Source: an uncultured Bacilli bacterium (GTDB lineage Bacteria > Bacillota_I > Bacilli_A > RF39 > UBA660). Taken from it: a stretch of DNA of 64,000 nucleotides. Within the stretch, counting starts at the first letter, position 1. Each line of letters begins with the position of its first letter. Shown one piece after another: positions 19,341 to 57,317 of the stretch. The position numbers and the translations under genes are program-made. Location of the stretch: assembly GCA_944358705.1 (NCBI GenBank), contig CALVRR010000004.1, positions 9,227 through 73,226 on the forward strand, given 5' to 3'. The notes under the pieces are model-generated. The model saw nothing but the letters and a program-made list of their open reading frames with translations, made no database searches and was not told the origin of the DNA.

Positions 19341-21785
19341 CTAATTATCAAAGAAATCATCAAAAAATTCATCATCATCGTCGTCATCATCTAAGGTTAA
19401 ATTAGTAGGACTTACTTCTTTGACATCTTTCTTCTCCTCTGTTACCACAGCACTCTTTTGTACTTCTTGTGGATTAAATGGTTTCTTAGTATCCTCAATA
19501 ATAGAAGAATCTTTTTTCTCAGTAATAGAATCAGGCAAAGAGGAATCTTTTTTATCATTAACGGAAGGAATCGTAGAATTCTTTTTCGCCTCTTGTTCTT
19601 TATTTCTCTTTTCTTCTTCTTCCAGTTCTGCTATTTTCGCATCAATCTTACGTACTAATTCATCCACATCAAATCCTAAACCATCATCTTTAGGAGCGGG
19701 CTTTGCCGAGGTTGGTGCAACTGTAGGATTAGGAACAGGAATAGGACTACTTCCAGGAGAAACTTGTGAAGTAGGATTTGGCATTCCATGAGGCATACCA
19801 GACATATTACCACCATGATTAGAAGGAGCAAAAGGATTAGACGATGGCATCGTATTAGGTCTAGCACCTCCCATTGGATTAGTAGAAGGAGCAAAAGGAG
19901 AATTACCTCCACCCATCATTGGATTTGAAGAAGAACCCATCATAGGATTAGATGGTAAACCACCAAACGGAGCTCTAGGAACACCACCACCCATTGGCGG
20001 AAAACCTCCACCAAACATATCTTTAGGAGCACCACCAGAGTTATTTCCATTATCAGCAGCATTCATCATCTCAAGTAACTTTTTCTTCTTCTGTGCCTTA
20101 ACAAACTCTTTTATATCAAAAGTATGTACTTCTTCCTTCTTACGTGTAGGATAATCAGCCTGTGGATACTTGCGTCCCCAATCCAATTGAAAATATGGAG
20201 TGAATCTTGTTTTAAAAGGTTGTTTTCTCATACGTAGAATGATAACTTCAAATTGCTTCATACGTTGTAAATCAGAAACTGTAACAAGTGGTGTAGAAGC
20301 AGTCTTTTCATCCTTCTTCGACTTAACTTCACCACACATCTTAGAAATTTCTTCCAACGCTTTCAACTCTGTAGTAATCAAATAAATAATATTACCACAG
20401 TTACCTCGAATAGTTTCTGCATTTTCTTTACCATAAACTTGATCAAGCTGAGCAAAGTTTTGAATAATCATAGTAAATCGAATATGTCTGGAACGAGCAG
20501 CCGTAATCATGGTAGTAACATCTTTTAAAGGGGGCATATTAGCAAACTCATCTAACAAGAAATTAGTACGAACAGGTAATTTTCCACCATGCATTTGTGC
20601 AACACCAATTAAGGTTTCATAAATTTGTTTCAATAAAATAGTAACCAAAGAGTGATAAGTCTTTTTCTCATCTTGAATAACAATGAAAACAGCGGTAGGA
20701 CGTTCCCCTATACTTTTTAAATCGATATCACTATGAGATAACATTTCACTTAAATTATCACGAGAAGCAAATAATTTTACTTTTTGCTTAAATACAGATA
20801 AAATGGATCCCTTAGTTTCTGTAGGAGCCATAATTGTACTAGAAGCATTAATTGCTGCAGCACTAGCTGGATCTTTTGCTGAGAAATATTCTTTAATATA
20901 AGTACTACCACCAAATTTTTCTTCACCAACCGTAGTAGCCAAAGAAATACTATTAATGTTAATTTCTTCTTCCTTAGCATCTTCAAAAAGACCTAAAGCA
21001 ACACCAGAGAAATAATCGGCAGATGTTTTTTCCCAGAATGGGTCAGCATTTTGATTAGATTCATCATACAAAATATTTAAAGCTAAGTCATCTAACAACT
21101 CAATCGCTTTATCTTGATTTCCATCTTTATACATTTGATAAGGTAAAGACATCGGATTCCAAGCATTACCATTTTGTGGATCACGGAAATTTAAAAGTAA
21201 AATCTGATAACCACGAGCACGAAGCATATTACTTGTTTTTTCATAAATTTCACCTTTAGGGTCCGTAATAATCATAGACTCTTTTGCCTTAGCTAAACTG
21301 TGAACCAAAGGTAAAATAACAGTCTGTGTTTTACCAGAACCAGTAGCACCAATAACTAATGAGTGATACTCACTATTATCTACCCACATTTCATTTTCAT
21401 TAAGAATAAGTGGAACTCCAGCAGCCGTAGAATTCTCTTGCTTAATCTCTACTCGCTCCAATTCCTCTTTAATTTCCTTTTCTTTTGCCCATCTAGAATA
21501 ACCTTTATCTTTCTTATCGGTAGTAAAACCAAATCCCTTTTCACGGTCAAAAAAGTAAGAACTAACACTTATTAATAAACCACCCAAAGCAAGAAAATAA
21601 AAAGTTAAAGTGGCAGCTATATATTTAGGTCCAAAAGCAGGAAACGGATTAAGACCAAACAAATAACCTTCCGTTGCAAAAGAAGACAAATTTAAAACAC
21701 CAATACAAACAATATATAACAAAAATATCGCAAATAAGACAAACATTAAAATATCTTCTGGATCTGCTCTAAATTTAAATTTCAT
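19341..21785 (-). CDS. VirD4/TraG type IV coupling protein with long low-complexity C-tail
   Basis: Two N-terminal TMs, GATGSGKT, TDPKGE, WNP, DPFW, LLDEFAN, ARSR..IIQ..QL...YG. Confidence 0.92.
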   Translation of the reverse strand: MKFKFRADPEDILMFVLFAIFLLYIVCIGVLNLSSFATEGYLFGLNPFPAFGPKYIAATLTFYFLALGGLLISVSSYFFDREKGFGFTTDKKDKGYSRWAKEKEIKEELERVEIKQENSTAAGVPLILNENEMWVDNSEYHSLVIGATGSGKTQTVILPLVHSLAKAKESMIITDPKGEIYEKTSNMLRARGYQILLLNFRDPQNGNAWNPMSLPYQMYKDGNQDKAIELLDDLALNILYDESNQNADPFWEKTSADYFSGVALGLFEDAKEEEININSISLATTVGEEKFGGSTYIKEYFSAKDPASAAAINASSTIMAPTETKGSILSVFKQKVKLFASRDNLSEMLSHSDIDLKSIGERPTAVFIVIQDEKKTYHSLVTILLKQIYETLIGVAQMHGGKLPVRTNFLLDEFANMPPLKDVTTMITAARSRHIRFTMIIQNFAQLDQVYGKENAETIRGNCGNIIYLITTELKALEEISKMCGEVKSKKDEKTASTPLVTVSDLQRMKQFEVIILRMRKQPFKTRFTPYFQLDWGRKYPQADYPTRKKEEVHTFDIKEFVKAQKKKKLLEMMNAADNGNNSGGAPKDMFGGGFPPMGGGVPRAPFGGLPSNPMMGSSSNPMMGGGNSPFAPSTNPMGGARPNTMPSSNPFAPSNHGGNMSGMPHGMPNPTSQVSPGSSPIPVPNPTVAPTSAKPAPKDDGLGFDVDELVRKIDAKIAELEEEEKRNKEQEAKKNSTIPSVNDKKDSSLPDSITEKKDSSIIEDTKKPFNPQEVQKSAVVTEEKKDVKEVSPTNLTLDDDDDDDEFFDDFFDN

Positions 21786-22634: not shown

Positions 22635-24923
22635 CTATTGAGTAACTGCAAAATAAGCTAATTCGCTAGTATTCTGCCAGTTATATTCACTCCACATATT
22701 TGTAGATTGACTAGCTGGATCCATCATTAAAATTGTATTACCATCAACACCATCAACAGCTACCCAGTGTTGACCAGTATTTCCTTTTACTTCAACAACA
22801 ACATAATATCCTTGATTAACTAAGTTTCGAATTGTTTCCAGTTTTTGTGATTGTGATTGACCAGCAAGAGTTCTCTTGGTTTGGAAAACAAAGTTTGGTG
22901 CCGCATTACTAACCGCAGCCCAGATTAAGTTCGCTCCAGAGAATCCTCCCGTAGCATTTAACTTTTGTACAAAAGTACCAGGATTAAAATCTCCATCCAC
23001 CGTAGTAGCTACACCACTTTTCGCAATTAACATAGAAACAGAAGTAGCCAAGCATCCAACACCAGCAATAGTTTTATTCGTATTACCAATGGTTATCGTA
23101 CCCCAGGCAGGATCTCCTTGTTTCCAACCAGAATAAGGCCCAGTACTACCAGTACTATTACAACCATCACCAGATCCAGTATTACATGTCATCTTATCGA
23201 TATTAGAAGCTCCATAAACTTGTAATAAGATTTGCTTATAATTAAGCCCCTGTTCAGCAAGAGAAATAAACTGATTTTGAACAGCACTCGCGTAATTTGT
23301 AGAAATAACATTTCCTTGTTCATTTACTAAAACTTCTCCCATGGTATCATTGGCTAAAGTACGCATTTTATGATCCGCAGGCAAAGGATCTTTAAATTTA
23401 ACACCATGATCAACACCACTACGAACCGTTCCGTATTGTTCCCCATCATTCATCGCCGAACATCCAAGATTAGGATTACAGTATACTTGGTCAGCAACAC
23501 AAGAAGAAAGTTGCAATATCCATTGACCATCTTCCTGCTCTAATTTTTTTCCATTTGCATTTCCCATAGACAAAGGTCGTGCCAAAGAAAAACTACGTGC
23601 CGCAACCATCTGTGCTTTAATCGCTTCATCCGGAGCAGTAGGACCAATTTCTTGATAAGCAACACCTAAAACATATTGCTCAAAAGGAACCAATTCTTCC
23701 CCTTCCAAAGGAGTATTCCAATCACCACTACCAAAAGATCCACCACATTCCATTAACCGAACTTTCAAATCATTAATTGTCATAGCTTGGCTGACATTAC
23801 CACGTCCGGAAATATAAAAACCTTTAATTTCATAAACACAAGAACCCAAACTAGCACAATTAGAAGCCGTAGAACCTATTAAACTAAAATAATCATCATA
23901 GTATTCAAAAACCTCATCTGCCCAGACTTCATAAGTACTAGCATTACCTCCAGACGTATACTTCGGAAAAATAGAATTAATTAAATTTTGTCGAAAGGTT
24001 TCCTCACTAAAACTATTACCAGAAAACATACTATTGGCAATCTCAGTAATAAATGCAGTTGTCATATCTTCATAAGTAAAATCCGCACCATGTTGATTTA
24101 AAATAATATAGACAGCAGAAATATAAACAGGATTAAAAGTTTTTCCTTGAGCTTGAAAACTATTTTTTATTTCTGCCACTCTATCAAAAAAAGCCTGAGC
24201 CAAGGGATCAGAAGTACTATAATCAATTCCACCAGTTTCTCCACCGGTAGCATCACTAACACCAAGAGCTTCATCATAACTAGCAATAACTCCTCCACCC
24301 TGAGCAACTGCTATGGAAAAGAGAAAAATGAAAAACCCACCAAGAACTGCACCAAAAATAGTCATCTTAACAGCAAGTTTACCAGAAAAAATACCTTCAA
24401 AGAAACTAGGCTTCTGTGATTTATCGTCATCATCATTACCATTATCTAAAAAATTAGGTTTTGACTTTTTAGGCCCTCCAACTCCTCCACTCGAAGAATT
24501 AGAAGCACCATCAACGCCAGATTTAGCTTTCTGTATTCGTTCTGGAGAAAGACCACTCTTTGGATCAGCACTGGCAATATCAACTGCTTTATCTGCAGCA
24601 TCTAATACTTTTTTATCATCCAGCTTCTTCATGGTCTTTCCAATACCAGGAATTTTATTTAATAATTGTGCACCCTTATTAAATACTTTGTCACCTAACT
24701 TAGTTTTTCCTAGCATATCCACAGCTTTACCAGCCGCTGGACTACCAAAGGCAGTAGCCGCACCTTTTGCCGTAGTTTTTAAAGCTTTTTTCGTAGAATC
24801 ATTTTGTTGTGCTTTATCTCTAGCACGTTTAGCTTGATAGGAAGAGTCGTCATGACCATTACTAGAATCATCACTTCGTTGTACACGATTACCATTTAGA
24901 TTTGTACCTTTCATTATGGACAT
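22635..24923 (-). CDS. VirB1-analog cell wall hydrolase: SpoIID/LytB domain plus C39-like peptidase
   Basis: TM near residue 190; FEQYVLGVAYQEI..EAIKAQMVAARSF (SpoIID); KQGD.W..GCLATSVSM..HWVAV..DP (C39_2-type). Confidence 0.75.
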   Translation of the reverse strand: MSIMKGTNLNGNRVQRSDDSSNGHDDSSYQAKRARDKAQQNDSTKKALKTTAKGAATAFGSPAAGKAVDMLGKTKLGDKVFNKGAQLLNKIPGIGKTMKKLDDKKVLDAADKAVDIASADPKSGLSPERIQKAKSGVDGASNSSSGGVGGPKKSKPNFLDNGNDDDDKSQKPSFFEGIFSGKLAVKMTIFGAVLGGFFIFLFSIAVAQGGGVIASYDEALGVSDATGGETGGIDYSTSDPLAQAFFDRVAEIKNSFQAQGKTFNPVYISAVYIILNQHGADFTYEDMTTAFITEIANSMFSGNSFSEETFRQNLINSIFPKYTSGGNASTYEVWADEVFEYYDDYFSLIGSTASNCASLGSCVYEIKGFYISGRGNVSQAMTINDLKVRLMECGGSFGSGDWNTPLEGEELVPFEQYVLGVAYQEIGPTAPDEAIKAQMVAARSFSLARPLSMGNANGKKLEQEDGQWILQLSSCVADQVYCNPNLGCSAMNDGEQYGTVRSGVDHGVKFKDPLPADHKMRTLANDTMGEVLVNEQGNVISTNYASAVQNQFISLAEQGLNYKQILLQVYGASNIDKMTCNTGSGDGCNSTGSTGPYSGWKQGDPAWGTITIGNTNKTIAGVGCLATSVSMLIAKSGVATTVDGDFNPGTFVQKLNATGGFSGANLIWAAVSNAAPNFVFQTKRTLAGQSQSQKLETIRNLVNQGYYVVVEVKGNTGQHWVAVDGVDGNTILMMDPASQSTNMWSEYNWQNTSELAYFAVTQ

Positions 24924-24949: not shown

Positions 24950-26740
24950 CTAAAAACCACCACTAGAACCAAAGGAATCTAACTCTTCCTTAGTTACCGC
25001 AATATTAATACGCATACGTCTATTACCACAGACAAATAATGCTTCACCTTGAGAATATCTCTTAATACTCTCCTTTTCACTATCATTCAAATCAATTAAT
25101 AAACTTAAATCTTCAACCGCTTGCTTCTTAAGTCCCATAACCAAATAATAAGACGCATTATCAAAGATTGCTTTACCATGCATAATAACACCAGGATCAG
25201 CAAAGTCACTTGGTTGTTGCGTAATAATAATGGTACCAGTATTATATTTACGAGCACGTCTTTGTACCTGTGCTAAGAATTCTGCACCTAAACGGTTATT
25301 AGAACCAAGTAAGACATGGGCTTCATCAACCATCAAAATTGTATCCACATTAAAATCCAAACAAAGACCCCAAGCATACTTTAATACGTTAAAGAACAAA
25401 GCATCACGAATATTAGAATCCGTATTCATCAACTCTTTGATATTAAATACCATAAAATCACTATCACGACGAATGGTTGTATGACCGTCGAAATAAAAAC
25501 GTAACTCTTTCGTAATAGGACGAATCTTTAATTCCAAACGTTCCATAACATCACGTTCTTTGGTCTGTTCCGTCATAGACATCAAACGTCCTTTAATAGT
25601 TGCATAAACATCGGAAAACGTTGGATAATCTTTCGATGTATATTTAGAAAAATCAGTATTAAAATCAATTCCAAAACGTTTATAAGTATCTTGAGCAACA
25701 TCACTAAACATGGTTAATACATCTTCTTCAATCGTTGAATCATAATAAGTTAAAAATGCTTTTAAAAACTGTAAGGTACGAGTTAATACGGTATAACCAA
25801 GTCCTTGTTTAATCTCTTCTTCATCCGCATCAATAACAATTTCTAACGGATTAATTAAACCAAATTCTCCACCCTTACCAATATCAATGGTATCTCCACC
25901 ATACGTTTGTGTAATCTCACGTAATTCATCCTCTGGGTCAATAGCAACAATTTGACAACCATTACGAATATGCGTACGAAGCATAACTTTAGCAGCCGTA
26001 GATTTACCAGATCCAGAAGTACCAAGTATGATCATATTGGCATTATTACGATTATTTTCTTTACGAATTTTATATAAAAATTGATTAAATAAGATAACAC
26101 CACCAGAAAAATCTACTCCTAGTAACGTAGAAAGCCCTGGATCTTTAATACTATCAAAAATAAAAGGATACATAGCCGCAATAGTAACGGATGGTATCGG
26201 AGTACCTATTCTTTGTTCAACATCTTGAGATGGGAAAATTGGTAAAATACTCTTTAATACTTTTTCCTGCTCAAAACGTAAAGAAATAGCTTTTAACTCC
26301 ATAGCGTCCAAATAGTTCTTAACATTAACTTTCTTTAATTCTAATTCCTCTTTCGTATCCGCAGTAATCATAATGTGCATCTGAAAATCAAAGATACGAG
26401 CTTGACTACCTGCCAACATAGAAGTAAAGTATTCCAAACTTTCTGCATCCTGACGATATCTTTCACGAGTCGTTTGATCACGTTCATGTTGATATTTTTC
26501 TCTTAAATCAGCAACTTGTCTGTTCAACATCTTAGACATTGTCTGAAATGGTACAGGAATATGTTTAATAACAACTTTAATACCAGGCATATTCGTTAAA
26601 GAAGATAAATAACCAGGAGTGATATATTTAGGAAAAGAAACCACCGTCATAATAGTAGCATAATGATCACTAATATAAAAATCACTAGGATTAAAACTAA
26701 GCCCCTTAGGAGCCAATTGACTTCTTATACTTGTACTCAT
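24950..26740 (-). CDS. VirB4/TraE-like T4SS ATPase
   Basis: NANMIILGTSGSGKS, IDPEDE, INPL, MVDEAH, RRARKY..IITQQ. Confidence 0.92.
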   Translation of the reverse strand: MSTSIRSQLAPKGLSFNPSDFYISDHYATIMTVVSFPKYITPGYLSSLTNMPGIKVVIKHIPVPFQTMSKMLNRQVADLREKYQHERDQTTRERYRQDAESLEYFTSMLAGSQARIFDFQMHIMITADTKEELELKKVNVKNYLDAMELKAISLRFEQEKVLKSILPIFPSQDVEQRIGTPIPSVTIAAMYPFIFDSIKDPGLSTLLGVDFSGGVILFNQFLYKIRKENNRNNANMIILGTSGSGKSTAAKVMLRTHIRNGCQIVAIDPEDELREITQTYGGDTIDIGKGGEFGLINPLEIVIDADEEEIKQGLGYTVLTRTLQFLKAFLTYYDSTIEEDVLTMFSDVAQDTYKRFGIDFNTDFSKYTSKDYPTFSDVYATIKGRLMSMTEQTKERDVMERLELKIRPITKELRFYFDGHTTIRRDSDFMVFNIKELMNTDSNIRDALFFNVLKYAWGLCLDFNVDTILMVDEAHVLLGSNNRLGAEFLAQVQRRARKYNTGTIIITQQPSDFADPGVIMHGKAIFDNASYYLVMGLKKQAVEDLSLLIDLNDSEKESIKRYSQGEALFVCGNRRMRINIAVTKEELDSFGSSGGF

Positions 26741-27288
26741 ACAGGAATCACCGTCCCAAATTCAGTAGTTTTACCCCCATTTAAGAAATTATCTAAAATA
26801 ATTCTCAAATCATCATCGGTCGTTTGTGAAGCATTAAGTCCACAACTAGCAAGACCATTAATTAACATACGAACTTTCTTTTGAACATTATTAGGATCTT
26901 TTTCTTTAAATAAAATATAATACTCAGTATCTACAATATTATTAGTAATAAACGTATTACCCTTATCAATATCTTGCATAATAAGTTTTCTTATCGCAGG
27001 TGATTGTGCTTCATTATATAATAGTTGCAACTGCGACATATAAACAGAAATATCTACAGGTCGATCAGCAACCACTAACCAAAATTCAAAATCTATCATA
27101 TTATAAAAGTTCTTTAAACTGATAATAACATTATTTTGAGATTGATAATCTAAGATAAAAATATTACGTGGAGAAATTTTAACACCAGAGATTTTAAAAT
27201 TATCCGTAGTGATAATCATACCATTTTGAATATTTTTTACAGGTAACCAGTTTTCTGTATAATTAGTTCCGACGATTTTCTTTTTCAT
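26737..27288 (-). CDS. T4SS accessory protein resembling the N-terminal part of TraE/VirB4
   Basis: WLPVKNIQNGMIIT..SPRNIFILD..; lies between PrgI-like and VirB4 genes. Confidence 0.55.
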   Translation of the reverse strand: MKKKIVGTNYTENWLPVKNIQNGMIITTDNFKISGVKISPRNIFILDYQSQNNVIISLKNFYNMIDFEFWLVVADRPVDISVYMSQLQLLYNEAQSPAIRKLIMQDIDKGNTFITNNIVDTEYYILFKEKDPNNVQKKVRMLINGLASCGLNASQTTDDDLRIILDNFLNGGKTTEFGTVIPV

Positions 27289-27580
27289 TCATGAAACACC
27301 AACCTTTCCAATGATAAGTCTGAGTAGAAGTAAAAAACTCATACATTTCCATAATAACATTTAAGATATTATGATAGTAAGGTACTGGCATAACCAAAAA
27401 ACCACAGATAACCGCAGGGCTTACTACCAAAATAGTAACCCAGGTATCTGTCAAAGGCATAAATGCCAATAAAATAATCGTAACCATAACCCCTGATAAA
27501 AACAATACTAAATCAAAAGGACGAAACAACCCCAGAATTAATTGTCCTTTTTTGGTATTCGCTGGTATCAAATAATTCAC
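27263..27580 (-). CDS. PrgI/VirB3-like membrane protein
   Basis: YLIPAN..ILGLF..D, two TMs, position upstream of VirB4. Confidence 0.65.
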   Translation of the reverse strand: MNYLIPANTKKGQLILGLFRPFDLVLFLSGVMVTIILLAFMPLTDTWVTILVVSPAVICGFLVMPVPYYHNILNVIMEMYEFFTSTQTYHWKGWCFMNEKENRRN

Positions 27581-27606: not shown

Positions 27607-29736
27607 TCATCTAAAATAATCGTCATCCAATGAATCACCGCCAAATTCCTGATTCTTGCCGGTCCAATCATGATAATCTTTACCATCTTCTGCCCAAGCA
27701 CGACCCTCAGATCTTTCCGTATTTCTCGAATCAGTTAAATCTTGTTGATACTGGAATTCATGAGCTTGACGGTTTTCAACACGGTTATCAATACCATGCC
27801 AATTAACTGCATCTTTCGCGGCATCCGCAACTGTTCCTGCCCCATTACTTACCATATGTTTCAAATCCTCTCCAAAATAGGAAGCGGTTCTACCAGCATT
27901 TCGAACACTATCAAAGAAAGTTGCATTAGACTGCTTTGACTGTTTTGCTTTATAACCAGGTGCAGCACCCCAGCGTTTCATCTCAGCTTCCATCTTAGAA
28001 TCCGCAGATTGAAGTTTACCAACTCTCTTCGTTTGATCAGATATAGCATCAATTAATTTATCTCTCTTAAGAGTCTTAGTATCTCCATTTTTATCTTTAT
28101 ACACAAAATCGCCCTGTCCATAAGCAAGATGATTTTTCATCTTCTCTAATAGGTTTTGTTCGGCTAACATTTCATCATGTAAATTATCATATCGATCTTG
28201 TGAAATACCTTCACTACGTAAGAATCCACGTCCACGATTTCTTTTAGCAGCTGTCATATGATCATCTCCTGTAAGCATTTTAGCAGCCAAGTCTGCTCCC
28301 ATATTCCAATTATCACCAAGTCCAGGAAGTGGTTTTCCTTGATTATAAGCCTGTGTCTGTGCTCTTGCCGAATCTTGAGCAGCATACATGGCATTACGAA
28401 GTCCCCCACCTTGTTTTAAGGCACCAGCCGCAGCTAAGAAACCACCCAATCCAAAGTTAGTCATGCTACTACCTTTAATTCCAAGAACATCTTTAATAAA
28501 TTTAGGTGCCATCTTAGCAAAGAAGAATAAACCAATCCAAATAAAGATAACAGAAATAATTCCTACAATACCAGAAGCTTCATTCATAATGATACCGTTT
28601 GCAATCATATCTTGAATTAAGAAAATAACAAAATATACAATAGCAAGTCTTAAAAACAAATCTAAATAAGTAGAAGTCAAAGCTTTTACCCAGGAAGAAA
28701 ACATTCCTCCATCCTTAGACGATTTCGGTTCAATATAACTAATAACCGGAATTGGTGCAAGTAATCTTAAAATAGAAAGTTTAATAGATCGAATAGCAAT
28801 ATCTACCGTAAACAAAGCTAATAAAACTAAAAATACAACACCAATAACTAAAGATAAAATCCAGTTAAAAGCAAATACATAACGAGATTTTCCACCAATA
28901 CTAAAGATTGGAATAATATTACTAGCTAAATTCGCAGCATTCTGAAAAATATTACCACTAATATTACAATCTGCATGAATAATAGCACTACTCATCAAAG
29001 TTTCAGGAGCAATATCTAACTGACTATAAGTATCTATAGCCGTACTCGCATCCGAACTGATATCATGTCCACAATACCAATTATCCTGATTCGTCTCATC
29101 ACTATCTACCCTAGATTCTTCTGGAAGTAAATTAATTCTTAAAAAAGACTTTAAAATCGTAGAAGTAAAAATACGAGCTGATTTCTGCAATTTCTGATTT
29201 TGTATGTCCGCCTGCGTCATACCAGCAGTAGACCCTGAATTTGAATTATCGACGGCTTGATCCGTCATTTCAGTTCCCAGGATTAATCGTCCCAGAGTAT
29301 TATTCGATAAAATACGATCTTGTAAAGAATACAAAGTACCAAATAATAAACCATTATTATTAATATATTTTTCAAAGGAATTTGCATCTTGTACATTAGG
29401 AATATTAATAGGAACAAGAACCGTTAATAAAGCCAAAGAAATAACAACTCGGGTAATAAAATTACCAAAGCCTTCTTTCTGACTAGCAAACTGTTCTGGA
29501 TTCATAATTCCTTGCAATATCGTAACAGCTAACTTAAAGATCATAAATACACCAATGATAAGTTGGATACGACTATAAAAATTCTTAATTGTTTCATTTT
29601 CAAATAATTGAGCACTAGAAACATTAAAGAAAATCTGATACATAAGTCCCAATAAGAAGTAAATTCCACTATTAAGAACCGCACCAAGAGTTCGAAATAA
29701 ATCACCAATTGTATCCGCATTTGCGTTATCTGTCAT
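27607..29736 (-). CDS. VirB6/TrbL-like polytopic T4SS channel protein
   Basis: IRSIKLSILRLLAPIPVISY..F.SW signature, multiple TMs, Gly/Ala-rich cytoplasmic tail. Confidence 0.75.
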   Translation of the reverse strand: MTDNANADTIGDLFRTLGAVLNSGIYFLLGLMYQIFFNVSSAQLFENETIKNFYSRIQLIIGVFMIFKLAVTILQGIMNPEQFASQKEGFGNFITRVVISLALLTVLVPINIPNVQDANSFEKYINNNGLLFGTLYSLQDRILSNNTLGRLILGTEMTDQAVDNSNSGSTAGMTQADIQNQKLQKSARIFTSTILKSFLRINLLPEESRVDSDETNQDNWYCGHDISSDASTAIDTYSQLDIAPETLMSSAIIHADCNISGNIFQNAANLASNIIPIFSIGGKSRYVFAFNWILSLVIGVVFLVLLALFTVDIAIRSIKLSILRLLAPIPVISYIEPKSSKDGGMFSSWVKALTSTYLDLFLRLAIVYFVIFLIQDMIANGIIMNEASGIVGIISVIFIWIGLFFFAKMAPKFIKDVLGIKGSSMTNFGLGGFLAAAGALKQGGGLRNAMYAAQDSARAQTQAYNQGKPLPGLGDNWNMGADLAAKMLTGDDHMTAAKRNRGRGFLRSEGISQDRYDNLHDEMLAEQNLLEKMKNHLAYGQGDFVYKDKNGDTKTLKRDKLIDAISDQTKRVGKLQSADSKMEAEMKRWGAAPGYKAKQSKQSNATFFDSVRNAGRTASYFGEDLKHMVSNGAGTVADAAKDAVNWHGIDNRVENRQAHEFQYQQDLTDSRNTERSEGRAWAEDGKDYHDWTGKNQEFGGDSLDDDYFR

Positions 29737-29752
29737 AAAGCATCACCACCTT

Positions 29753-30964
29753 TTATTTTAAACCACATATAGCATCTGTTGTAATTCCAAACGTATCAAG
29801 TAAAACACTAACAAGTGTAGGTATTAAAAATAATGCAATAGCTAAAACTAAACGAATTGCTAATTTTTTTTCTGCCTTTTTCATACTTTCATCATCACTA
29901 GTAATAATAGCTTTTGCAAAATCTAAACTACTAAGAATAACTACTAAAATAGGTCCTAATATTTTAATATAATTTAAAAGTTGTTGCAATAACCAAGCAA
30001 CAGATTCTTCATCTTCCGTACTACCTAAAATAGAATTACATTCTGCATCTTGATTATAAGAATTTAAATCTTCTCTTAAATCATCAATAGTAACAGAACC
30101 TGGTTGATAATTATCATTAGAAGAACTTGAATCACTATCTGGATCTCCAAAAGATCCATTATAATAACTAGAACCAAAAGCTTGTCCATCTTCAGTACTA
30201 AGCTCATCATTCGTACAATAACCAGCAGAAGTAGATAATTCATAAGAATAACCATCCTCTGTTTTGCTAACGCAACGATAAATACTAGTAGGACAACTAG
30301 TCTTAGAAGAACCATAAATAGTATCTAATAAAGAATCATTCACAGAGATAGAAAACTTCTCTCCATTCACACTTCCCGTAATAGAATCCGTTACAGGTAC
30401 ATAAACTTCTCCCCCAATTGACCACTCTTTAGTACCATCAGAATAAAGTCTGAAATAAGGAAAAACATAACTCTTACGATTATAAAATCCCATACTAGAA
30501 CCAACACAAGTAGAAGAAACCTTCTTAGATTTTATCCCCTGATTCTTTGCCCATTTTGATAATTTAGGAGTACTAGAAGTAATATTATAACAACGTCCAG
30601 AACAAGAATCACGATACACGGGATTAGAATAAACCGTAACACCCAAATCATTTTCTTGTACATAAATAGAAGGACAAGTAATAGTAGAATTATTAATTTT
30701 AGCAATATTATAATAAGTATCTGAAAATTTATCACTATGATACCAAGCACGACCATCATTAGAAAATAAACTTCCATCACCAAAAGGAAGCCCTACACTT
30801 CCATCTGAAAAAATCTGATAATTTAATTCTATTTTCTTACCATTTTCATTTGTAAATTGATAATCACAACTAACAACCTCTTTAGCTAAAGCATTCGTAT
30901 TATATGGAATACAAAACAAAAAACCAAAGATAAAAATAAACAAAGAAATTTGCAACTTTCTCAC
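29753..30964 (-). CDS. Minor pilin: secreted Cys-containing domain fused to C-terminal VirB2/TrbC-like pilin domain
   Basis: Likely GTG start at 30964 (GGAG RBS), signal peptide ending ALA; C-terminal PILVVILSSLDFAKAI..DD..KKA..RLVLAIALFLIP. Confidence 0.65.
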   Translation of the reverse strand: MRKLQISLFIFIFGFLFCIPYNTNALAKEVVSCDYQFTNENGKKIELNYQIFSDGSVGLPFGDGSLFSNDGRAWYHSDKFSDTYYNIAKINNSTITCPSIYVQENDLGVTVYSNPVYRDSCSGRCYNITSSTPKLSKWAKNQGIKSKKVSSTCVGSSMGFYNRKSYVFPYFRLYSDGTKEWSIGGEVYVPVTDSITGSVNGEKFSISVNDSLLDTIYGSSKTSCPTSIYRCVSKTEDGYSYELSTSAGYCTNDELSTEDGQAFGSSYYNGSFGDPDSDSSSSNDNYQPGSVTIDDLREDLNSYNQDAECNSILGSTEDEESVAWLLQQLLNYIKILGPILVVILSSLDFAKAIITSDDESMKKAEKKLAIRLVLAIALFLIPTLVSVLLDTFGITTDAICGLK

Positions 30965-31011
30965 TGTCACCACTCCATATAAACATTCATACAGAATAAG
31001 TATAACAAAAT

Positions 31012-31040
31012 AAAAAAAAAATAGCAATTATTTTGCTATT
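31012..31040 (-). terminator. Terminator after VirB2-like major pilin
   Basis: aatagcaa/ttgctatt stem plus long U tract. Confidence 0.7.
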
Positions 31041-31047
31041 TAATTTA

Positions 31048-31410
31048 TTATTTAATACTATTCCAACAATTAGCCCAGCTAGTAGTATCAGCTTCACCAT
31101 CACCAGCTTCAGCTCCTGTAGTAACTAGTGACATAAGTAAACTTACTAATGTAGTAATGAAGAAGATAGCTACTGCATAAATACATCTTTTAATTAAACG
31201 GCTTTGTGCTTGTTTAACTTCTTTTTCATCACTAGAAATAACAGCTTTACCTAAATCAATAGTACCAAAAACAATTAATAAAATTGGAATACCAATTTGA
31301 ACAATAGGGAATACACCTTTTTTAATAATTCTAACGATTGGTTCTAATCCCCCGCAGTTGTCATTAACATTTCCAACTACACCTATTTGAAATAAATCTA
31401 ACATAAACAA
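31048..31410 (-). CDS. VirB2/TrbC-like T4SS pilin (probable major subunit)
   Basis: 120 aa; two hydrophobic helices separated by KAVISSDEKEVKQAQSR; TTG start, strong RBS. Confidence 0.7.
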   Translation of the reverse strand: MFMLDLFQIGVVGNVNDNCGGLEPIVRIIKKGVFPIVQIGIPILLIVFGTIDLGKAVISSDEKEVKQAQSRLIKRCIYAVAIFFITTLVSLLMSLVTTGAEAGDGEADTTSWANCWNSIK

Positions 31411-31430: not shown

Positions 31431-31459
31431 ATATTATCTTAAAAACAAAAATTTGTCAA
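31431..31459 (-). promoter_or_regulatory. Sigma-A promoter of the VirB2-like pilin
   Basis: TTGACA-17-TAATAT. Confidence 0.6.
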
Positions 31460-31461
31460 CA

Positions 31462-32451
31462 TTACCTACGAAATAATCCAAAGATTTTACCAGATTCCTT
31501 CTTTTCTGCTTTCGCAGAAATTAACCCCATACGAGATAAAAAATCATCAAAAATAGGATTTCTTTTTCTCTCATCTAACGGAGGCATATTATAAAACACC
31601 TTCGTCTTTGCTTCATATTCAAAATCAGTAATATCTTTATTCGTAAGCAAACTTTTATTCAAAATGATTTTTTTCTGCTGAAGTTTAGAAAAAATATTAC
31701 GATTTCTTCGCATCAATCGATTAAGCTTTATTGTAGAAGGTTCTAATAAATATAAAACATCTCCACAACAAGAATCATCTGGATAATCATTCAAATCAAT
31801 TAAAATAACCGAAGCACCAGCATACCGAGTAAGAGCCGCTTGTACTTGATCAGCAGTAATAGATAACATGTTTTTATCTCCAAAATATTGAAAGTCATTC
31901 TTATTAATTTCTAAAGCAATAATTGTATCACCAAAATGAACTTTCAACTCTTTCTTTAATATATATATAAATGTGGTAGCACCAGCATGTTCTGTAACAT
32001 TGCGAATACCAATAATTTTAGAACCACTCTCGACTTTTTCAACAATCGTATTAGAAACATCATTAAGTTGCTGAATATGAGCCACTTGCTTATAAGAATT
32101 AGGATGTTCTAGTAAATATTTAACACCTTCAATATTAGTTGTAAAGTTATAAATCCCCATAGAAACAAGTTTAGATAAAAAATTAGAAGTACAAACATCA
32201 GACCCCTCTGGCAAAAAGAAAACAATCTTTTCAACATCAAGTCCCATAGCAATGACTTGAAAACTTTTTATATTATGAAAATCTTTAATAGCAGTAACAT
32301 CCAAAACCATCTTGTTATAAAAAAAGTTTTTAAACATTTCTACTATTTCATTTGCTTCATATTCCCCAGAAATACTTTTTATAACATCAATATCTAACCC
32401 AGCTAAAAGATTTCGTTGTGTATTACTAACTATTACATTCATAAGAATCAC
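31462..32451 (-). CDS. TadZ/CpaE-like protein (receiver-like plus degenerate ParA/MinD domain)
   Basis: KIIGIRNVTEHAGATTF (degenerate Walker A), VILIDL, ILNK, C-terminal amphipathic KIFGLFRR. Confidence 0.55.
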   Translation of the reverse strand: MILMNVIVSNTQRNLLAGLDIDVIKSISGEYEANEIVEMFKNFFYNKMVLDVTAIKDFHNIKSFQVIAMGLDVEKIVFFLPEGSDVCTSNFLSKLVSMGIYNFTTNIEGVKYLLEHPNSYKQVAHIQQLNDVSNTIVEKVESGSKIIGIRNVTEHAGATTFIYILKKELKVHFGDTIIALEINKNDFQYFGDKNMLSITADQVQAALTRYAGASVILIDLNDYPDDSCCGDVLYLLEPSTIKLNRLMRRNRNIFSKLQQKKIILNKSLLTNKDITDFEYEAKTKVFYNMPPLDERKRNPIFDDFLSRMGLISAKAEKKESGKIFGLFRR

Positions 32452-32457
32452 CCTATT

Positions 32458-32907
32458 CTATTCAAACGGTGTAATCAATTTGGTATTACCAGAAACCTGA
32501 AAAATTTTTAAACCTGGCATTATTTTATTAATAATTGGAATATCAATATTAATCTGTGTTACAACTTTAAAATAGATTTGATTATCGCCTTCAGAAACAA
32601 CCCCTTCTGGCTTTTCATCAGCAACATCAAAACGTTGATAACAATATCCTTCATGACAAGTATAACCATCTATTTTAAAATCGGGAGCACTATACCCAAT
32701 TTGATGTATATAATTAGAAATTTTTTGAGCACAAGCGGTATTTTCTCCCTCACAATTTCCTTCATACTGTTCCATTGTCGTAATAATGTAATTTTTGACA
32801 CGAAATGCTTTTGTATAATTAACATTAAATGCCAAATAGCCACATACCAAAACTAAAAATATAACAATCATTGATAAATTGACGATTCCACCAAAAGCAT
32901 CCCGCAT
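32458..32907 (-). CDS. TadE-like pseudopilin
   Basis: N-terminal hydrophobic helix, terminal YFKVVT...IDIPII..F.VSG.T strands; follows Flp-like gene. Confidence 0.5.
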   Translation of the reverse strand: MRDAFGGIVNLSMIVIFLVLVCGYLAFNVNYTKAFRVKNYIITTMEQYEGNCEGENTACAQKISNYIHQIGYSAPDFKIDGYTCHEGYCYQRFDVADEKPEGVVSEGDNQIYFKVVTQINIDIPIINKIMPGLKIFQVSGNTKLITPFE

Positions 32908-32925
32908 CTTTTACACCTACCCTTT

Positions 32926-33102
32926 TTATCTGTTATGATCAATAACAATATAAGTTTTCTTATAATTACCAGAAATATTACCCCATTGACTATTGATAGA
33001 TTGCTGAATATTAGGCCACATAATCCAGAAAAACCCAATAATTGCTGCAATTGCAATTAAAGTAATAACTGTTAAGTTTAATTCTCCTGTTGCTGCTTTC
33101 AT
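32926..33102 (-). CDS. Flp-like pilin
   Basis: 58 aa from ATG 33102: ATGELNLTVITLIAIAAIIGFFW..P.I...I; directly after TadC-like gene. Confidence 0.6.
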   Translation of the reverse strand: MKAATGELNLTVITLIAIAAIIGFFWIMWPNIQQSINSQWGNISGNYKKTYIVIDHNR

Positions 33103-33140
33103 AAATACATACACATCCTTTCCTATTGTATACAATATAT

Positions 33141-33169
33141 ATTATAACAAGATTATTTATTTTTAACAA
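33141..33169 (-). promoter_or_regulatory. Promoter of Flp-like pilin
   Basis: TTGTTA-17-TATAAT with extended TG. Confidence 0.55.
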
Positions 33170-33185
33170 TACGTTTTAAATTATT

Positions 33186-34873: not shown

Positions 34874-34889
34874 AAAAATTCACTCCTTT

Positions 34890-36536: not shown

Positions 36537-36566
36537 CTAACCCATCTCCTTTTTATTCTTTAACTT

Positions 36567-53794: not shown

Positions 53795-53817
53795 AAAAAA
53801 CAAGTGAAAACTTGTTT
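53795..53817 (-). terminator. Terminator after the pilin-hydrolase cassette
   Basis: aaacaagt-tttc-acttgttt plus U tract. Confidence 0.6.
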
Positions 53818-54592
53818 AACCTACAATATAAAATTCATAACTTTCATCAGTGAAATACTCTTCTTCTCCATAAACAGAATAGATAGAAAACGCCCGATAA
53901 GCAATCAATTTTCCATGATCAATATAATAATAAACAGAGTCCATATAATCGTCAATACCTCTCCACTTTAGAAAGCAATCATAATCACATTCTTGACGAA
54001 TAAGATAGCCCTTGGAAACTTCATCATTATAATATGATTGAAGTTGTCCCTTAATTTTTTTTGAAACATCATCATCAGAAACCCCAAATAAATCTAAAAC
54101 TTCTTCCTCTTCCATCAACGTTTGATTTTTCAAATTAAAATTATACGTATGAAAACTAACCGTCGGAAAAGAATAACCATCTTCATAATCCAACATTTTT
54201 AATAAAACAGATAAAACTTCCCCATTTACCTGAGAATCATAAACAAATAAATTATTCTTATTCTTTAAAAAGTCTTCTGCATAGTTTTGAATTGCTTTAT
54301 TAACTAAATCTGCATCCTTACTATCGATGTTAATCTCTGGTATTTCATTTTTCATATTTTGATTATTAGTAGAACTAGACTTCGTATAAACCAGGTATTG
54401 AGAAGAATCTTTTTTTATATAATTATAATTACTATAATAATTCTTATATAAATAATAAAAAACTAACAAAATAATCAAAAGAAAAACAAAAATCCATGGT
54501 AATATTTTCTTCCATCGAAAAGAAAGAAATTGTTTTCTTGGACTTTTTCTTTTCTTTACCGATTTTTTTCTCTCTTGTACCACACCAAACAT
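53816..54592 (-). CDS. Membrane-anchored protein, RsiV/PdaC-like fold suspected; paralog of 56565-57317
   Basis: TM; IPEINI..VN..I, VLSVL, TYNFNL, ECDYDCF, EEEYFT.ES. Confidence 0.55.
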   Translation of the reverse strand: MFGVVQERKKSVKKRKSPRKQFLSFRWKKILPWIFVFLLIILLVFYYLYKNYYSNYNYIKKDSSQYLVYTKSSSTNNQNMKNEIPEINIDSKDADLVNKAIQNYAEDFLKNKNNLFVYDSQVNGEVLSVLLKMLDYEDGYSFPTVSFHTYNFNLKNQTLMEEEEVLDLFGVSDDDVSKKIKGQLQSYYNDEVSKGYLIRQECDYDCFLKWRGIDDYMDSVYYYIDHGKLIAYRAFSIYSVYGEEEYFTDESYEFYIVG

Positions 54593-54600
54593 AAATCCTC

Positions 54601-55443
54601 CTAATTTACACCATTAATACGCATAATCCCCCAGACATTACGATATTTATAAGACTCCGTTATTTTTACTCCACCGGCAGGATAAGGTCTTGAGTTACTA
54701 GCATGAACCATCTCTTCCCCATTACCAGTTAAAATACCAACATGACTACCGTACATAACAACATCCCCAGCCTTAATATTACCATCCGTAACCAAAGTAT
54801 ACGTATTAGTAGCTGCCCATTGAGCATAAGTAGTACGTGGTAAACTAATTCCAAAGTGAGCAAAAACACCTTGCACAAACCCACTACAATCCGTAGGTGT
54901 ATATGGCCTTTCTCCATTCCAAGAACCACCATAAGAATAACTTTGTCCTACAAACTCTTTCGCATAAGCAACAATAGCACGTCCAGTAGCACTACCATTA
55001 CCACCATTAACTTCTGGATTATCATAATCCTCTGGCATCAAAATAAAAGATTGGGGTGTTTTATTCGTGGTAGAAACATAAGTACTATTTTCTTGCTTCA
55101 ATACTTCTCGTGTTATCCTAGCGGTATCCCAACAAGCGCCTAATTGAAAACTTCCAATATCACTAGGAATCATACCTAAAGCTAAATCAACAAAAAAAGG
55201 AACAAAAAAGCAAAGTAAAGCAGCAATAAACTTATTTAATAAACTCTTTTTCTTTTTATCATCATCCGGATTAACTAATAATTGAGTAAATTGAATTGCT
55301 AATGCGGTCATTAAAATAATAGGAGCAACTAACTGAATTAAATTTAATATTTGCCTTAAAATATCCAAAATATTTAACAAACCATAATCTGTACAACAAG
55401 TACCCAAGGCTTCACTACAATCCAAAATATGAAAAAACCGCAT
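54601..55443 (-). CDS. VirB2-like pilin domain fused to NlpC/P60 peptidoglycan peptidase
   Basis: N-terminal helical hairpin with NPDDDKKKK loop; DCSGFV, LPRT, GDVV, HVGI, VHAS. Confidence 0.8.
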   Translation of the reverse strand: MRFFHILDCSEALGTCCTDYGLLNILDILRQILNLIQLVAPIILMTALAIQFTQLLVNPDDDKKKKSLLNKFIAALLCFFVPFFVDLALGMIPSDIGSFQLGACWDTARITREVLKQENSTYVSTTNKTPQSFILMPEDYDNPEVNGGNGSATGRAIVAYAKEFVGQSYSYGGSWNGERPYTPTDCSGFVQGVFAHFGISLPRTTYAQWAATNTYTLVTDGNIKAGDVVMYGSHVGILTGNGEEMVHASNSRPYPAGGVKITESYKYRNVWGIMRINGVN

Positions 55444-55495: not shown

Positions 55496-56551
55496 TTATC
55501 CATAATACTGTTTAATAGCACTAGCAATATCTTTGGCAATCTTTTCTTTCTTACTACTATAATTATCCATAGCACTTTTATTATCATAAAATTCTGTTTC
55601 CAAATAAGTAATAGGAATTCCCAAATTCATAAAATAACCTATATCAAAAGCACTATACACATAATCTGAATAATGTCTTTTACCAGTATTAGAAATAACT
55701 GCATTAACAATCGCTTGATCAACAGGAGTACTATAACTAGAACTCTTTTTAACCAACTGAGTACCAGCGGCACTACCATTACTTGAAGCATTAAAATGTA
55801 CCTCTAAAACATATTTATAACGACTCCAATCAAACCGATTACACAAACTAGTATTATTCCTACACTCTTTATAAAAAGATGTATTCATCTGATTAGAATC
55901 ACCAGCCATCAAAGCATTTGCAATGTCTGCTTCTACTCCTAAAGCACTAAGTTCGGATTTAATAAGTTTCACCAAAATACGAGTCTGATCAGTTTCATCA
56001 TATCCAGAAGAAAGCATTCCTCGACAATCATTGGGAGAACCATTACAATAAGGAGGATAAGCATGACCAGCAATCAATAAAATAGTTCCATTTCCTGTAC
56101 TAGGACTAGTAGAAGTATCATCCCTAGTAATCTCCGTATCGTATTCACTAGGATCAGTAATAATAGAGGATGGCTCTCTTCCACTAATATCAATATATGT
56201 GTTTTCCGTTGCCATACTAATTTGATCTATCTCATTAGACGCTTCCCAACAAGCACCAATACTAAAACCAGAAAAAACCCAGTTAATTACAACATTAACA
56301 ATCGTAGGTAATAAAAAGACCACAACCGCCGCAATAAACTTATTAAGTAAAGCCTTTATCTTTTTCTTATCATCAGGACTAACCATTAACTGTGTAAACT
56401 GAATCGCTAACGCAACCATTAATAAGATAGGCACAATAATGTGAATGATATTTAAGAATCGTTGAATAATACCTAGAAATCTCGCAAGCGCAAAATCACT
56501 ACAACAAGTATTAATATCACCAGCACAATTTAAAACCTGCAAAAAAGGCAT
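55496..56551 (-). CDS. VirB2-like pilin domain fused to N-acetylmuramoyl-L-alanine amidase (Amidase_3)
   Basis: Same N-terminal hairpin; IAGH, YDE, EVHFNA, YLETEF zinc/catalytic residues. Confidence 0.8.
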   Translation of the reverse strand: MPFLQVLNCAGDINTCCSDFALARFLGIIQRFLNIIHIIVPILLMVALAIQFTQLMVSPDDKKKIKALLNKFIAAVVVFLLPTIVNVVINWVFSGFSIGACWEASNEIDQISMATENTYIDISGREPSSIITDPSEYDTEITRDDTSTSPSTGNGTILLIAGHAYPPYCNGSPNDCRGMLSSGYDETDQTRILVKLIKSELSALGVEADIANALMAGDSNQMNTSFYKECRNNTSLCNRFDWSRYKYVLEVHFNASSNGSAAGTQLVKKSSSYSTPVDQAIVNAVISNTGKRHYSDYVYSAFDIGYFMNLGIPITYLETEFYDNKSAMDNYSSKKEKIAKDIASAIKQYYG

Positions 56552-56564
56552 AAAATCACCTCAA

Positions 56565-57317
56565 TTATTCCTTAACTACAAAATGAAAAGACTCTTCTGT
56601 AAAGTAATTTTCCTCATTATATGGAGAATAAATATTAAAACTCTTATAAAGTTCCAATCGACCATCATGAATATAATAAGAATTATCCTCCATAAAATCA
56701 ACAATTCCTTTAGAATCAACAAAACATTGAAAATCACACTCGTCTTCTGTAAAATACCCCTCGTCTACTAAATCATTATAATAATTAAGAAATTTATAAG
56801 TAATAAAATAACGTAAATCATCTTCCTTAATATCAAACATTTCAAATAAATCCTGATCAGAAAGAACTTCTAGAGTTTCTAAATCTAAATTATAAGTTTG
56901 ATAATGAATATCATAGTTCGAAGCATCTACATATCGTTGTTTTGAACGAATCAAAAGAGATAAAACATGACCAGAAACATCAAAATCATATTCAAACTCA
57001 TCTGTAAACTTCGTTAAATATTCTTGATAGATTTCCATAATCTCCGCATTTATTTCTGAAACATTAGGATGATTAATATTAATAACAGGAACACGATCTT
57101 CTTCTTTTACTATAGTATTAGAAGAAGAATATACAATATCAAAATCCTGATCTTCTAATAGATTTTGATAATCAATAGTATCTGTATCAAAATAATGAAC
57201 AAGTCCTAAAATAACAAAAACAAAAAGTACAAGAACAAAAAATACAATCAATATTTTTTTATAAGAATTATAACTTTTATGTTTTTTTTCTTCAAAAGTA
57301 TGAAACATAAAAAACAC
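56565..57317 (-). CDS. Membrane-anchored protein, paralog of 53816-54592
   Basis: TM; VPVINI..IN..I, VLSLL, TYNLDL, ECDFQCF, EENYFT.ES. Confidence 0.55.
   Translation of the reverse strand: MFFMFHTFEEKKHKSYNSYKKILIVFFVLVLFVFVILGLVHYFDTDTIDYQNLLEDQDFDIVYSSSNTIVKEEDRVPVININHPNVSEINAEIMEIYQEYLTKFTDEFEYDFDVSGHVLSLLIRSKQRYVDASNYDIHYQTYNLDLETLEVLSDQDLFEMFDIKEDDLRYFITYKFLNYYNDLVDEGYFTEDECDFQCFVDSKGIVDFMEDNSYYIHDGRLELYKSFNIYSPYNEENYFTEESFHFVVKE

Follow-up and report, generated by a model that had tools for sequence, protein, structure and literature searches.

The question raised by a 64,000-nucleotide stretch of DNA from an uncultured Bacilli bacterium (GTDB order RF39, family UBA660; GenBank assembly GCA_944358705.1, contig CALVRR010000004.1, positions 9,227 to 73,226), referred to here as the window, is how a VirB2-like pilin hairpin might have its ends tied together and at the same time carry other protein domains on them. 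The source genome comprises 1.70 Mb with 29.4% G+C and is 95% complete. Four proteins with such a hairpin, designated A to D, are encoded in the window, all on the minus strand. A preliminary description of this DNA had noted that cysteine residues stand before and after the hydrophobic hairpin in all four and had proposed a disulfide bond between them in place of cyclization. RP4 TrbC is a head-to-tail cyclized pilin. According to the accessible part of PMC2653234, VirB2 pilins lose their leader by cleavage and a peptide bond then connects their ends head to tail, which agrees with the background from which the preliminary description started.

The hairpin proteins and their cysteine pair

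Protein A (31048..31404, minus strand), whose ATG at 31404 stands behind GAAGGAG, is a stand-alone pilin-like hairpin protein of 118 amino acids (aa). Its Cys17 (NDNCGG) and Cys113 (ANCW) flank the two helices (residues 21-57 and 60-98), and a third cysteine, Cys74, is located inside helix 2. In protein B (29753..30964, minus strand; 403 aa with the start taken as GTG 30964), a signal peptide (1-27) is followed by an ectodomain of 280 residues with a beta-rich, Cys-rich part (approximately 29-260), by a disordered linker (271-311) and by the C-terminal hairpin (helices 322-355 and 358-391). The hairpin of B is flanked by Cys309 (AECNS, codon 30040-30038) and Cys400 (AICGLK), and eight more cysteines are found in the ectodomain. 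Proteins C (54601..55443, minus strand; 280 aa) and D (55496..56551, minus strand; 351 aa) have the hairpin at the N-terminus, followed in C by an NlpC/P60 endopeptidase domain and in D by an N-acetylmuramoyl-L-alanine amidase domain (Amidase_3) with two more C-x6-C pairs. Both contain Cys9, Cys16 and Cys17 before the hairpin (DC..TCC in C) and one cysteine after it in the context GACW (Cys104 in C, Cys101 in D). The first cysteine of A, C and D lies 8-16 residues from the start, and no signal-peptide-like segment was found in these three proteins.

All cysteines named in the preliminary description were present, and the same arrangement (DACGS...AKCW) was found in a fifth copy, E, on another contig (C11; L001:1417-1836). 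The paralogs are only 21-32% identical to A. At a cysteine frequency of 1.1%, the probability that all five copies have a cysteine in both 15-residue flanks by chance is approximately 7e-9.

A profile of the five paralogs A to E retrieved 9017 cluster representatives at E ≤ 1e-3, and residues were counted in the best 150 of these. Cysteine was found at profile position 17 in 147/150 and at position 102 in 148/150, the five apparent misses comprising two truncated sequences and three trimmed or shifted alignments. The second cysteine is followed by Trp at position 103 in 139/150, and Pro41 (150/150) is the sole more constant position. A has 1176 homologs at E ≤ 1e-3. Both outer cysteines were present in all 20 sequences inspected among the 120 listed close homologs (62-100% identity), while the flank from helix 2 to the second cysteine varies in length and sequence; in total, 103 of the 120 contain three cysteines, 13 contain two and four contain four. 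In A-type loci from named genomes both cysteines were found in 57/58, and the exception runs off the contig end. B-type proteins retain all ten cysteines of the mature protein in 111-120 of 121 sequences, with Cys309 and Cys400 each present in 120/121, and hydrolase fusions of relatives have both cysteines in 31/31 cases (16 loci). Conservation in homologs, the absence of which the preliminary description had counted against a disulfide, was therefore observed in each of these sets.

Since the paralog profile itself contains the cysteines, a second test was run across the class with the Pfam model T4SS_pilin (PF18895), in which the cysteine positions are not included. Of the 29 best distinct matches to this model, both cysteines were present in 13 of the 14 from the host family, as opposed to none of the 15 from nine other Bacilli families. 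The single host-family protein that deviates, 105 aa in length, has a nearly identical counterpart in another family. These two PF18895 proteins without the cysteine pair (L023, G035:C8, and L024, G128:C28, from two Bacilli families) probably belong to a shared conjugative element that is distinct from the chromosomal system with the Cys-flanked hairpin.

The profile of the Cys-flanked hairpin was found in 34/34 genomes of the host family and in only two genomes elsewhere among approximately 265. These two sister-family genomes encode three hairpins with cysteines on both sides and one tandem, near-identical paralog with cysteines on neither. A similar pairing was observed for the extra Cys9 and Cys16, which form a C-x6-C motif next to Cys17: 57 representatives have both and two have only one of them, and among the hydrolase fusions of relatives six have both and none has a single one. 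The cysteine pair is lineage-specific and nearly invariant, and C ... hairpin ... C-W provides a practical sequence signature for finding this hairpin family.

Fold, topology and the proposed disulfide clamp

The domain is a VirB2-like two-helix membrane hairpin of the Pfam T4SS_pilin type and falls loosely within PF18895. The matches of the four window proteins to this family are weak (A 20.9, B 16.9, C 20.4 and D 23.0 bits; cut-off 26.6). In a six-frame search D reached 26.1 bits (26.6 with neighbors) and E 34.4 bits, and 95/148 cluster representatives matched PF18895 at E ≤ 1e-3. No match of A to D to PF04956 (TrbC/VirB2) was found at E ≤ 0.1, and only one of the 148 relatives matched this family (1.4e-5). 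Likewise, no match to N_methyl, the class III signal of type IV pilins, was found in A to D. The NCBIfam models pLS20_p028, Mbov_0395 and Mbov_0396 matched the hairpins of C, D and E weakly (E from 3.6e-7 to 7e-4), with scores that all lie far under the cut-offs. A search of the ESM Atlas with A returned its own kind and one PF18895 cluster only, and when the family profile was searched against PDB sequences, the matches were to membrane proteins by chance only (E ≥ 0.017).

AlphaFold2 models based on family alignments show two long antiparallel helices in both A and B. For A (mean predicted local distance difference test score, pLDDT, 74.8) the helices 21-57 and 60-98 are followed by a helix at 107-116, and for B (mean pLDDT 78.1) the region 29-260 is confidently beta-rich, 271-311 is disordered, and the hairpin helices span 322-355 and 358-391. 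Among the 150 representatives the mean hydropathy is 2.4 in both helices, and the Lys-rich loop has a mean net charge of +2.7, compared with +0.4 for the N-flank and -1.4 for the C-flank; it is the most positive segment in 129/150. By the positive-inside rule, this distribution predicts that the loop is cytoplasmic and that both Cys-bearing ends are outside the cell, which is the topology of VirB2. Cysteines on opposite sides of the membrane, named in the preliminary description as speaking against a disulfide, are not what the sequences suggest, since both would be located on the outer side.

An intramolecular disulfide clamp of the hairpin is our best reading and a likely one. We favor it because both cysteines are predicted to be outside, because they are invariant amid drifting surroundings, because they occur both or not at all, and because the number of extracellular cysteines is even: ten in B, eight in D, and four in C apart from the catalytic and in-membrane cysteines. 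In the host family, the hairpin has acquired one invariant cysteine immediately ahead of helix 1 and a second one right behind helix 2, usually as C-W. According to this proposal, the hairpin would insert with both ends outside the cell and the Lys-rich loop in the cytoplasm, and the two cysteines would form an intramolecular disulfide that shuts its open, extracellular end. A subfamily adds a second, small C-x6-C loop beside the proposed clamp.

Such a clamp would do the topological job of the head-to-tail cyclization of VirB2 and TrbC and leave the termini free. That both termini are free and bear cargo, as the preliminary description had supposed, was borne out by the N-terminal ectodomain of B and the C-terminal enzymes of C, D and many homologs. 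The hairpins thus resemble VirB2 of Agrobacterium and TrbC of RP4 in being helical hairpins, in the predicted position of the ends outside and of the loop inside, in the vicinity of their genes to VirB3, VirB4 and VirB6 and in their presumably tied ends. Unlike these pilins, A, C and D have no leader, and the proposed tie is a side-chain disulfide that keeps the termini available for fusions. The fused copies cannot be cyclized. The cysteine pair represents a simple, testable alternative to pilin cyclization. In our literature search, in which matches were mostly judged by the title and the start of the abstract, no paper was found that describes a VirB2-type hairpin closed by a disulfide, or pilins fused to hydrolases in Bacilli.

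Several points weigh against a disulfide clamp in a VirB2-like hairpin. The gut is a reducing habitat, and members of the DsbB, VKOR, Thioredoxin_4 and DSBA families were not found in the 95% complete genome. When the cysteine parity of exported and cytoplasmic proteins, separated by a crude signal-peptide rule, was compared genome-wide, there was no clear bias towards even numbers. The second cysteine lies in a lipobox-like context in 70/148 representatives, including C and D. In the structural models the regions around the cysteines are of low confidence, with pLDDT values of 58 and 57 for the blocks 11-20 and 101-110 of A and below 50 for residues 271-311 and 393-403 of B. A to D all remain under the curated PF18895 cut-off of 26.6 bits, and fold searches gave only generic helical hairpins both for A (Foldseek against the PDB, best E 2.2; VIA wide, best Z 7.1) and for B (best E 0.06 with Foldseek and best Z 7.7 with VIA, whose matches all lay on the hairpin). 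Sampling also has to be considered: the list of the best 150 is biased, since the profile behind it includes the cysteines; the PF18895 test comprises few sequences (14 versus 15), and related sequences are not independent of each other; and the 16 loci with hydrolase fusions were hand-picked from top-scoring rows with adjacent fusions and are thus non-random.

The genome encodes three exported or membrane-anchored thioredoxin-fold CxxC proteins, with the motifs CGYC, CEHC and CGYC, and a fusion of a redoxin with a CcdA-like membrane domain. One exported thioredoxin-fold type is present in 102/121 genomes of the order. These proteins could form an unusual thiol-disulfide pathway outside the cell, and the hairpins bear on how anaerobic Firmicutes without DsbA and DsbB form extracellular disulfides. 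The respective loci in the genome (G000) are C10:23549-24094, C11:44401-44628, C27:10843-11115 and C19:31370-31723.

Cargo fusions and competing explanations

We infer two roles for the clamped hairpin. In the first, A would probably be the pilin or channel subunit of a chromosomal, lineage-wide type IV secretion system (T4SS), and B its decorated partner. In the second, the hairpin would act as a leaderless N-terminal anchor: helix 2 would export the wall enzymes fused behind it (among them NlpC/P60, amidase and SGNH enzymes), and the hairpin would retain them at the outer face of the membrane.

Fusions detected among 148 representatives include NlpC/P60 (36), Peptidase_C39_2 (7), CHAP (5), M23 (3), C70 (3), Amidase_5 (3), glucosaminidase (2) and GDSL (2-3) domains as well as others. 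B-type proteins have variable Cys-rich N-terminal ectodomains and end 1-4 residues past the second cysteine. The genes for C and D are located between a yrrM-like methyltransferase gene and genes for U32 peptidases, approximately 23 kb from the VirB6 and other T4SS genes, and E is also located away from the T4SS core genes. In 9/16 picked loci from other genera, the genes for hairpin-hydrolases are found at this same position next to mltG/yceG and housekeeping genes, in the order IreB-RuvX-DUF1292-YceG/MltG-methyltransferase-(~250-aa protein with one transmembrane (TM) helix)-(one to three hairpin-hydrolases)-U32-U32. This row resembles the ruvX-mltG-yrrM-yrrNO order of B. subtilis. The conserved position beside mltG therefore favors membrane-anchored housekeeping wall enzymes over pilus cargo. 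At this conserved locus of housekeeping genes, the same hairpin module would serve as the anchor of peptidoglycan endopeptidases, of amidases and of esterases, which bears on how these reduced bacteria organize wall remodeling. In E, the hairpin is followed by an SGNH (GDSL; GDS...DGLH) hydrolase domain in the +1 frame (L001:1417-2353); the one-base frame shift, which is located in an A/C-rich run and interrupts this hairpin-esterase fusion, may be an assembly error or mark a pseudogene.

The preliminary description had gone further and suggested a modular display pilus. In such a pilus, A would form a VirB2-type filament through the wall, and B, C, D and E would co-polymerize via their hairpins, so that adhesin-like and wall-cutting cargo would be shown on the surface or the tip of the filament. 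Every paralog indeed has the same clamped hairpin despite the low identity to A, and the cargo is always found beyond the cysteines, be it N- or C-terminal. The hairpin profile is present in 117/121 genomes of the order with 1-16 copies each, and VirB4 is likewise missing from the four genomes in which no hairpin was found; however, this co-occurrence is uninformative because both are nearly universal in the lineage. Upstream of A there is a promoter-like site, TTGACA-17-TAATAT (31431..31459, minus strand), a consensus match alone in a region with 12 such sites versus 10.8 expected, and directly after its stop codon there is a terminator- or attenuator-like hairpin with a U-run (31012..31041, minus strand; -9.2 kcal/mol, z -3.1), which was missed in a consensus scan owing to the low number of G-C pairs in its stem. 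A is covered by RNA-library contigs of three studies, although such contigs do not allow expression to be ranked; the sparse coverage of B and of the VirB6-like gene is uninformative. In addition to the distance of C and D from the T4SS genes and the position of the fusions beside mltG in nine of the 16 picked loci, the domain tree argues against a common filament: the A-type and B-type hairpins form separate clades (support 0.98 and 1.0, respectively) that are distinct from the fused type, while fused and unfused hairpins of the C/D/E-type intermix. We therefore disfavor the display pilus, and a wall-spanning filament of a leaderless, disulfide-closed pilin with enzyme- or adhesin-like paralogs co-polymerized in a monoderm lineage seems rather unlikely to us. 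If true, such a co-polymerizing clamped filament would mean that Gram-positive bacteria have a conjugation-type pilus that is modular and armed with enzymes. In that case, it could also be the Firmicute-side relative of the essential T4SS of Patescibacteria.

For the enzyme-fused subfamily, helix 2, with the Lys-rich loop ahead of it, could alternatively be a long lipoprotein signal, with the second cysteine (that of L/I-G/S-A-C) lipidated by Lgt and LspA possibly cleaving before it to leave a lipid-anchored enzyme. Lgt and LspA are encoded in the genome, the sequences LGAC of C and IGAC of D match a lipobox, and the lipobox-like matches mentioned above, scored as [LVI][ASTVI][GAS]C, are distributed over 49/84 fused and 21/64 unfused representatives. 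However, a lipobox is found in 0/120 A-type proteins and not in B (DAIC), where the cysteine is nevertheless invariant, and WANC of A and LAKC of E are also off the pattern. At least one charged residue is present at profile positions 92-101 before the cysteine in 139/150 representatives, whereas the usual lipobox stands at the end of a hydrophobic core; in most of them the helix and the cysteine are separated by a polar or charged spacer. Furthermore, the whole N-terminal helix is conserved, which is unexpected for a leader, and the equally conserved first cysteine and the Trp after the second one would be left unexplained. We consider lipidation of this cysteine improbable.

The two cysteines might also act between subunits, either in head-to-tail intermolecular disulfides or in a shared metal site, and give rise to a linked oligomer or filament. 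Judging from the models, both would be located at the exposed end of the hairpin, where neighbors in a pilin lattice meet, and their both-or-none conservation fits such a bond as well as an intramolecular one. The single-copy anchors C and D, however, keep the pair without a need to polymerize, the extra C-x6-C pair resembles a local loop, and no conserved His or Asp partners of a metal site were found next to the cysteines. A bond across subunits thus has a low probability in our view.

Finally, the cysteines could stay reduced in the anoxic gut and be kept for packing at the membrane interface or for transient redox sensing. The apparent lack of DsbA, DsbB and VKOR, the reducing habitat and the genome-wide parity described above are in favor of this possibility. 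It is difficult to reconcile with the near-absolute invariance of two cysteines in flanks of variable sequence and length, their paired gain and loss, the even numbers in B, C and D, and the retention of exported thioredoxin-fold proteins in most of these reduced genomes, and we regard permanently unbonded cysteines as an unlikely explanation.

Two further genes accompany the hairpin-hydrolases in the window. A ~250-aa protein with one TM helix and a C-x3-C motif (53816..54592, minus strand) belongs to a cluster (cl2) with 11 members beside hairpin-hydrolases, and a paralog is located at 56565..57317 (minus strand). An unconfirmed lead from the Atlas points to DUF3298/PdaC (RsiV-like; 0.90). 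These partner proteins may be regulators or inhibitors of the hydrolases. A toxin/immunity island made up of C, D and their ~250-aa neighbors was rejected in view of the cross-genus synteny beside mltG.

The type IV secretion locus and related systems

A and B are located directly upstream of the T4SS genes. Immediately downstream of B lies the gene for a VirB6/TrbL-like polytopic membrane protein (27607..29736, minus strand), which matches TrbL_4 with 24.3 bits (cut-off 27) and Mbov_0396 weakly; two cysteines of this protein (YCGHD ... HADCNISG) are apparently situated within a long extracellular loop. It is followed by a VirB3/VirB4 unit (24950..27580, minus strand) of three overlapping open reading frames of 105, 183 and 596 aa, i.e., a VirB3-like frame (27263-27580), the N-terminal part of VirB4 (26737-27288) and a VirB4-like ATPase (24950-26740), which correspond to one 894-aa protein in the model from a mycoplasma integrative and conjugative element (ICE). 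Further downstream are the genes for a 762-aa SpoIID-domain protein (22635..24923, minus strand), a candidate wall-cutting enzyme of the T4SS locus, and for a VirD4-type coupling protein (19341..21785, minus strand; T4SS-DNA_transf, 1.1e-55). No relaxase was found within the T4SS locus; a search for three relaxase families detected a single Mob_Pre relaxase in the genome, on another contig (C3:23582-24247).

Protein A is 91-93% identical to its counterparts in uncultured gut 'Bacilli' and 'Tenericutes' metagenome-assembled genomes and in Candidatus Faecimonas, the nearest named relatives of the host family, which NCBI places in Bacilli incertae sedis. The VirB4 ATPase is conserved with 63-89% identity in 113/121 sampled genomes of the order, with genome sizes of 0.6-1.6 Mb. 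In two of the four VirB4-negative genomes with a hairpin match, the match is located at a contig end. In at least 47 other genomes, hand comparison revealed a hairpin gene that shares the contig of VirB4 and lies no more than ~7 kb away from it, a lower bound that rests on 150 of 441 rows. Given this proximity and the frequencies of VirB4 and of the hairpin in the order, the T4SS is a core, vertically kept system of the host lineage. An uncultured gut Bacilli family with small genomes keeps VirB2-type hairpins beside a vertically conserved T4SS, which bears on how monoderm T4SSs cross the wall.

A core, vertically kept T4SS resembles the situation in Patescibacteria as described in the available text of PMC12102498 (Microb Genom 2025). 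According to this text, PF18895 comprises VirB2-like pilins found mostly in Patescibacteria, where they frequently form tandem arrays. Like these, the proteins described here consist of a two-helix hairpin with a charged loop and occur as several divergent paralogs per genome in small genomes. The two systems also have in common a chromosomal, lineage-wide T4SS of the monoderm type and a locus without a relaxase, to judge from the accessible sections of PMC12102498, but the host here is a Bacilli family. Gram-positive T4SS classes are said to be without virB2 homologs in the portions available of PMC12102498 and, for the pLS20 family, of PMC8557374. Within the Bacilli, the 15 PF18895 proteins examined from other families lack the flanking cysteine pair, unlike those of the host family. 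Related hairpins are also found in Firmicute and Mollicute conjugation systems, namely in pLS20_p028, in the 'pilin-like conjugal transfer protein' Mbov_0395 and in Mbov_0396 of the mycoplasma ICE; these proteins, however, are encoded on mobile elements, and the mycoplasma-type PF18895 matches L007 and L008 are without the cysteine pair.

Disulfide-stabilized proteins are known among type IV pilins and pseudopilins, where the bond closes the C-terminal D-region loop; in B. subtilis, ComGC requires BdbDC. Disulfide enzymes encoded by T4SSs are known as well, according to the available part of PMC12624023. The likeness proposed here consists in a conserved cysteine pair that would stabilize an extracytoplasmic pilin and in a reliance on exported thiol-disulfide enzymes. 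Fold and machinery are unrelated: the leader of type IV pilins is of class III (N-methyl), a single helix stands at their N-terminus, and their disulfide closes a loop of the globular head instead of a hairpin.

The fused enzymes have counterparts in the VirB1-like wall hydrolases of Gram-positive T4SSs such as PrgK, CwlT and TcpG. This T4SS-associated class is described in the portion of PMC12102498 that was available. The hairpin fusions are similar to these hydrolases in combining enzymes of the NlpC/P60, amidase and CHAP types with an N-terminal membrane anchor, but C and D are located outside the T4SS operon in the mltG-side housekeeping row, and their anchor is a pilin-type hairpin rather than a single TM helix or a lipobox. 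As to the ectodomain of B, searches with the whole protein gave no fold match for it, and no search was made with the ectodomain alone.

On the side opposite VirB6 and VirB4, the T4SS genes are adjoined by a Tad/Flp-like pilus cluster (31462-37385, minus strand). It encodes a T2SSE ATPase (34890-36536), an RcpC/CpaB-like protein (36567-37385), a DUF5411 protein and a 69-aa Flp-like protein (32926-33135), and RNA-library contigs from four runs cover the Flp-like gene. The two most Cys-rich exported proteins of the whole genome are also both encoded within the window. One of them (37876-40788; 970 aa, 29 cysteines) is located beside a sortase gene (40763-41578), and the other one (51563-53749; 728 aa, 20 cysteines), with a type IV pilin N-methyl motif and Listeria-Bacteroides repeats, adjoins the region of C and D.

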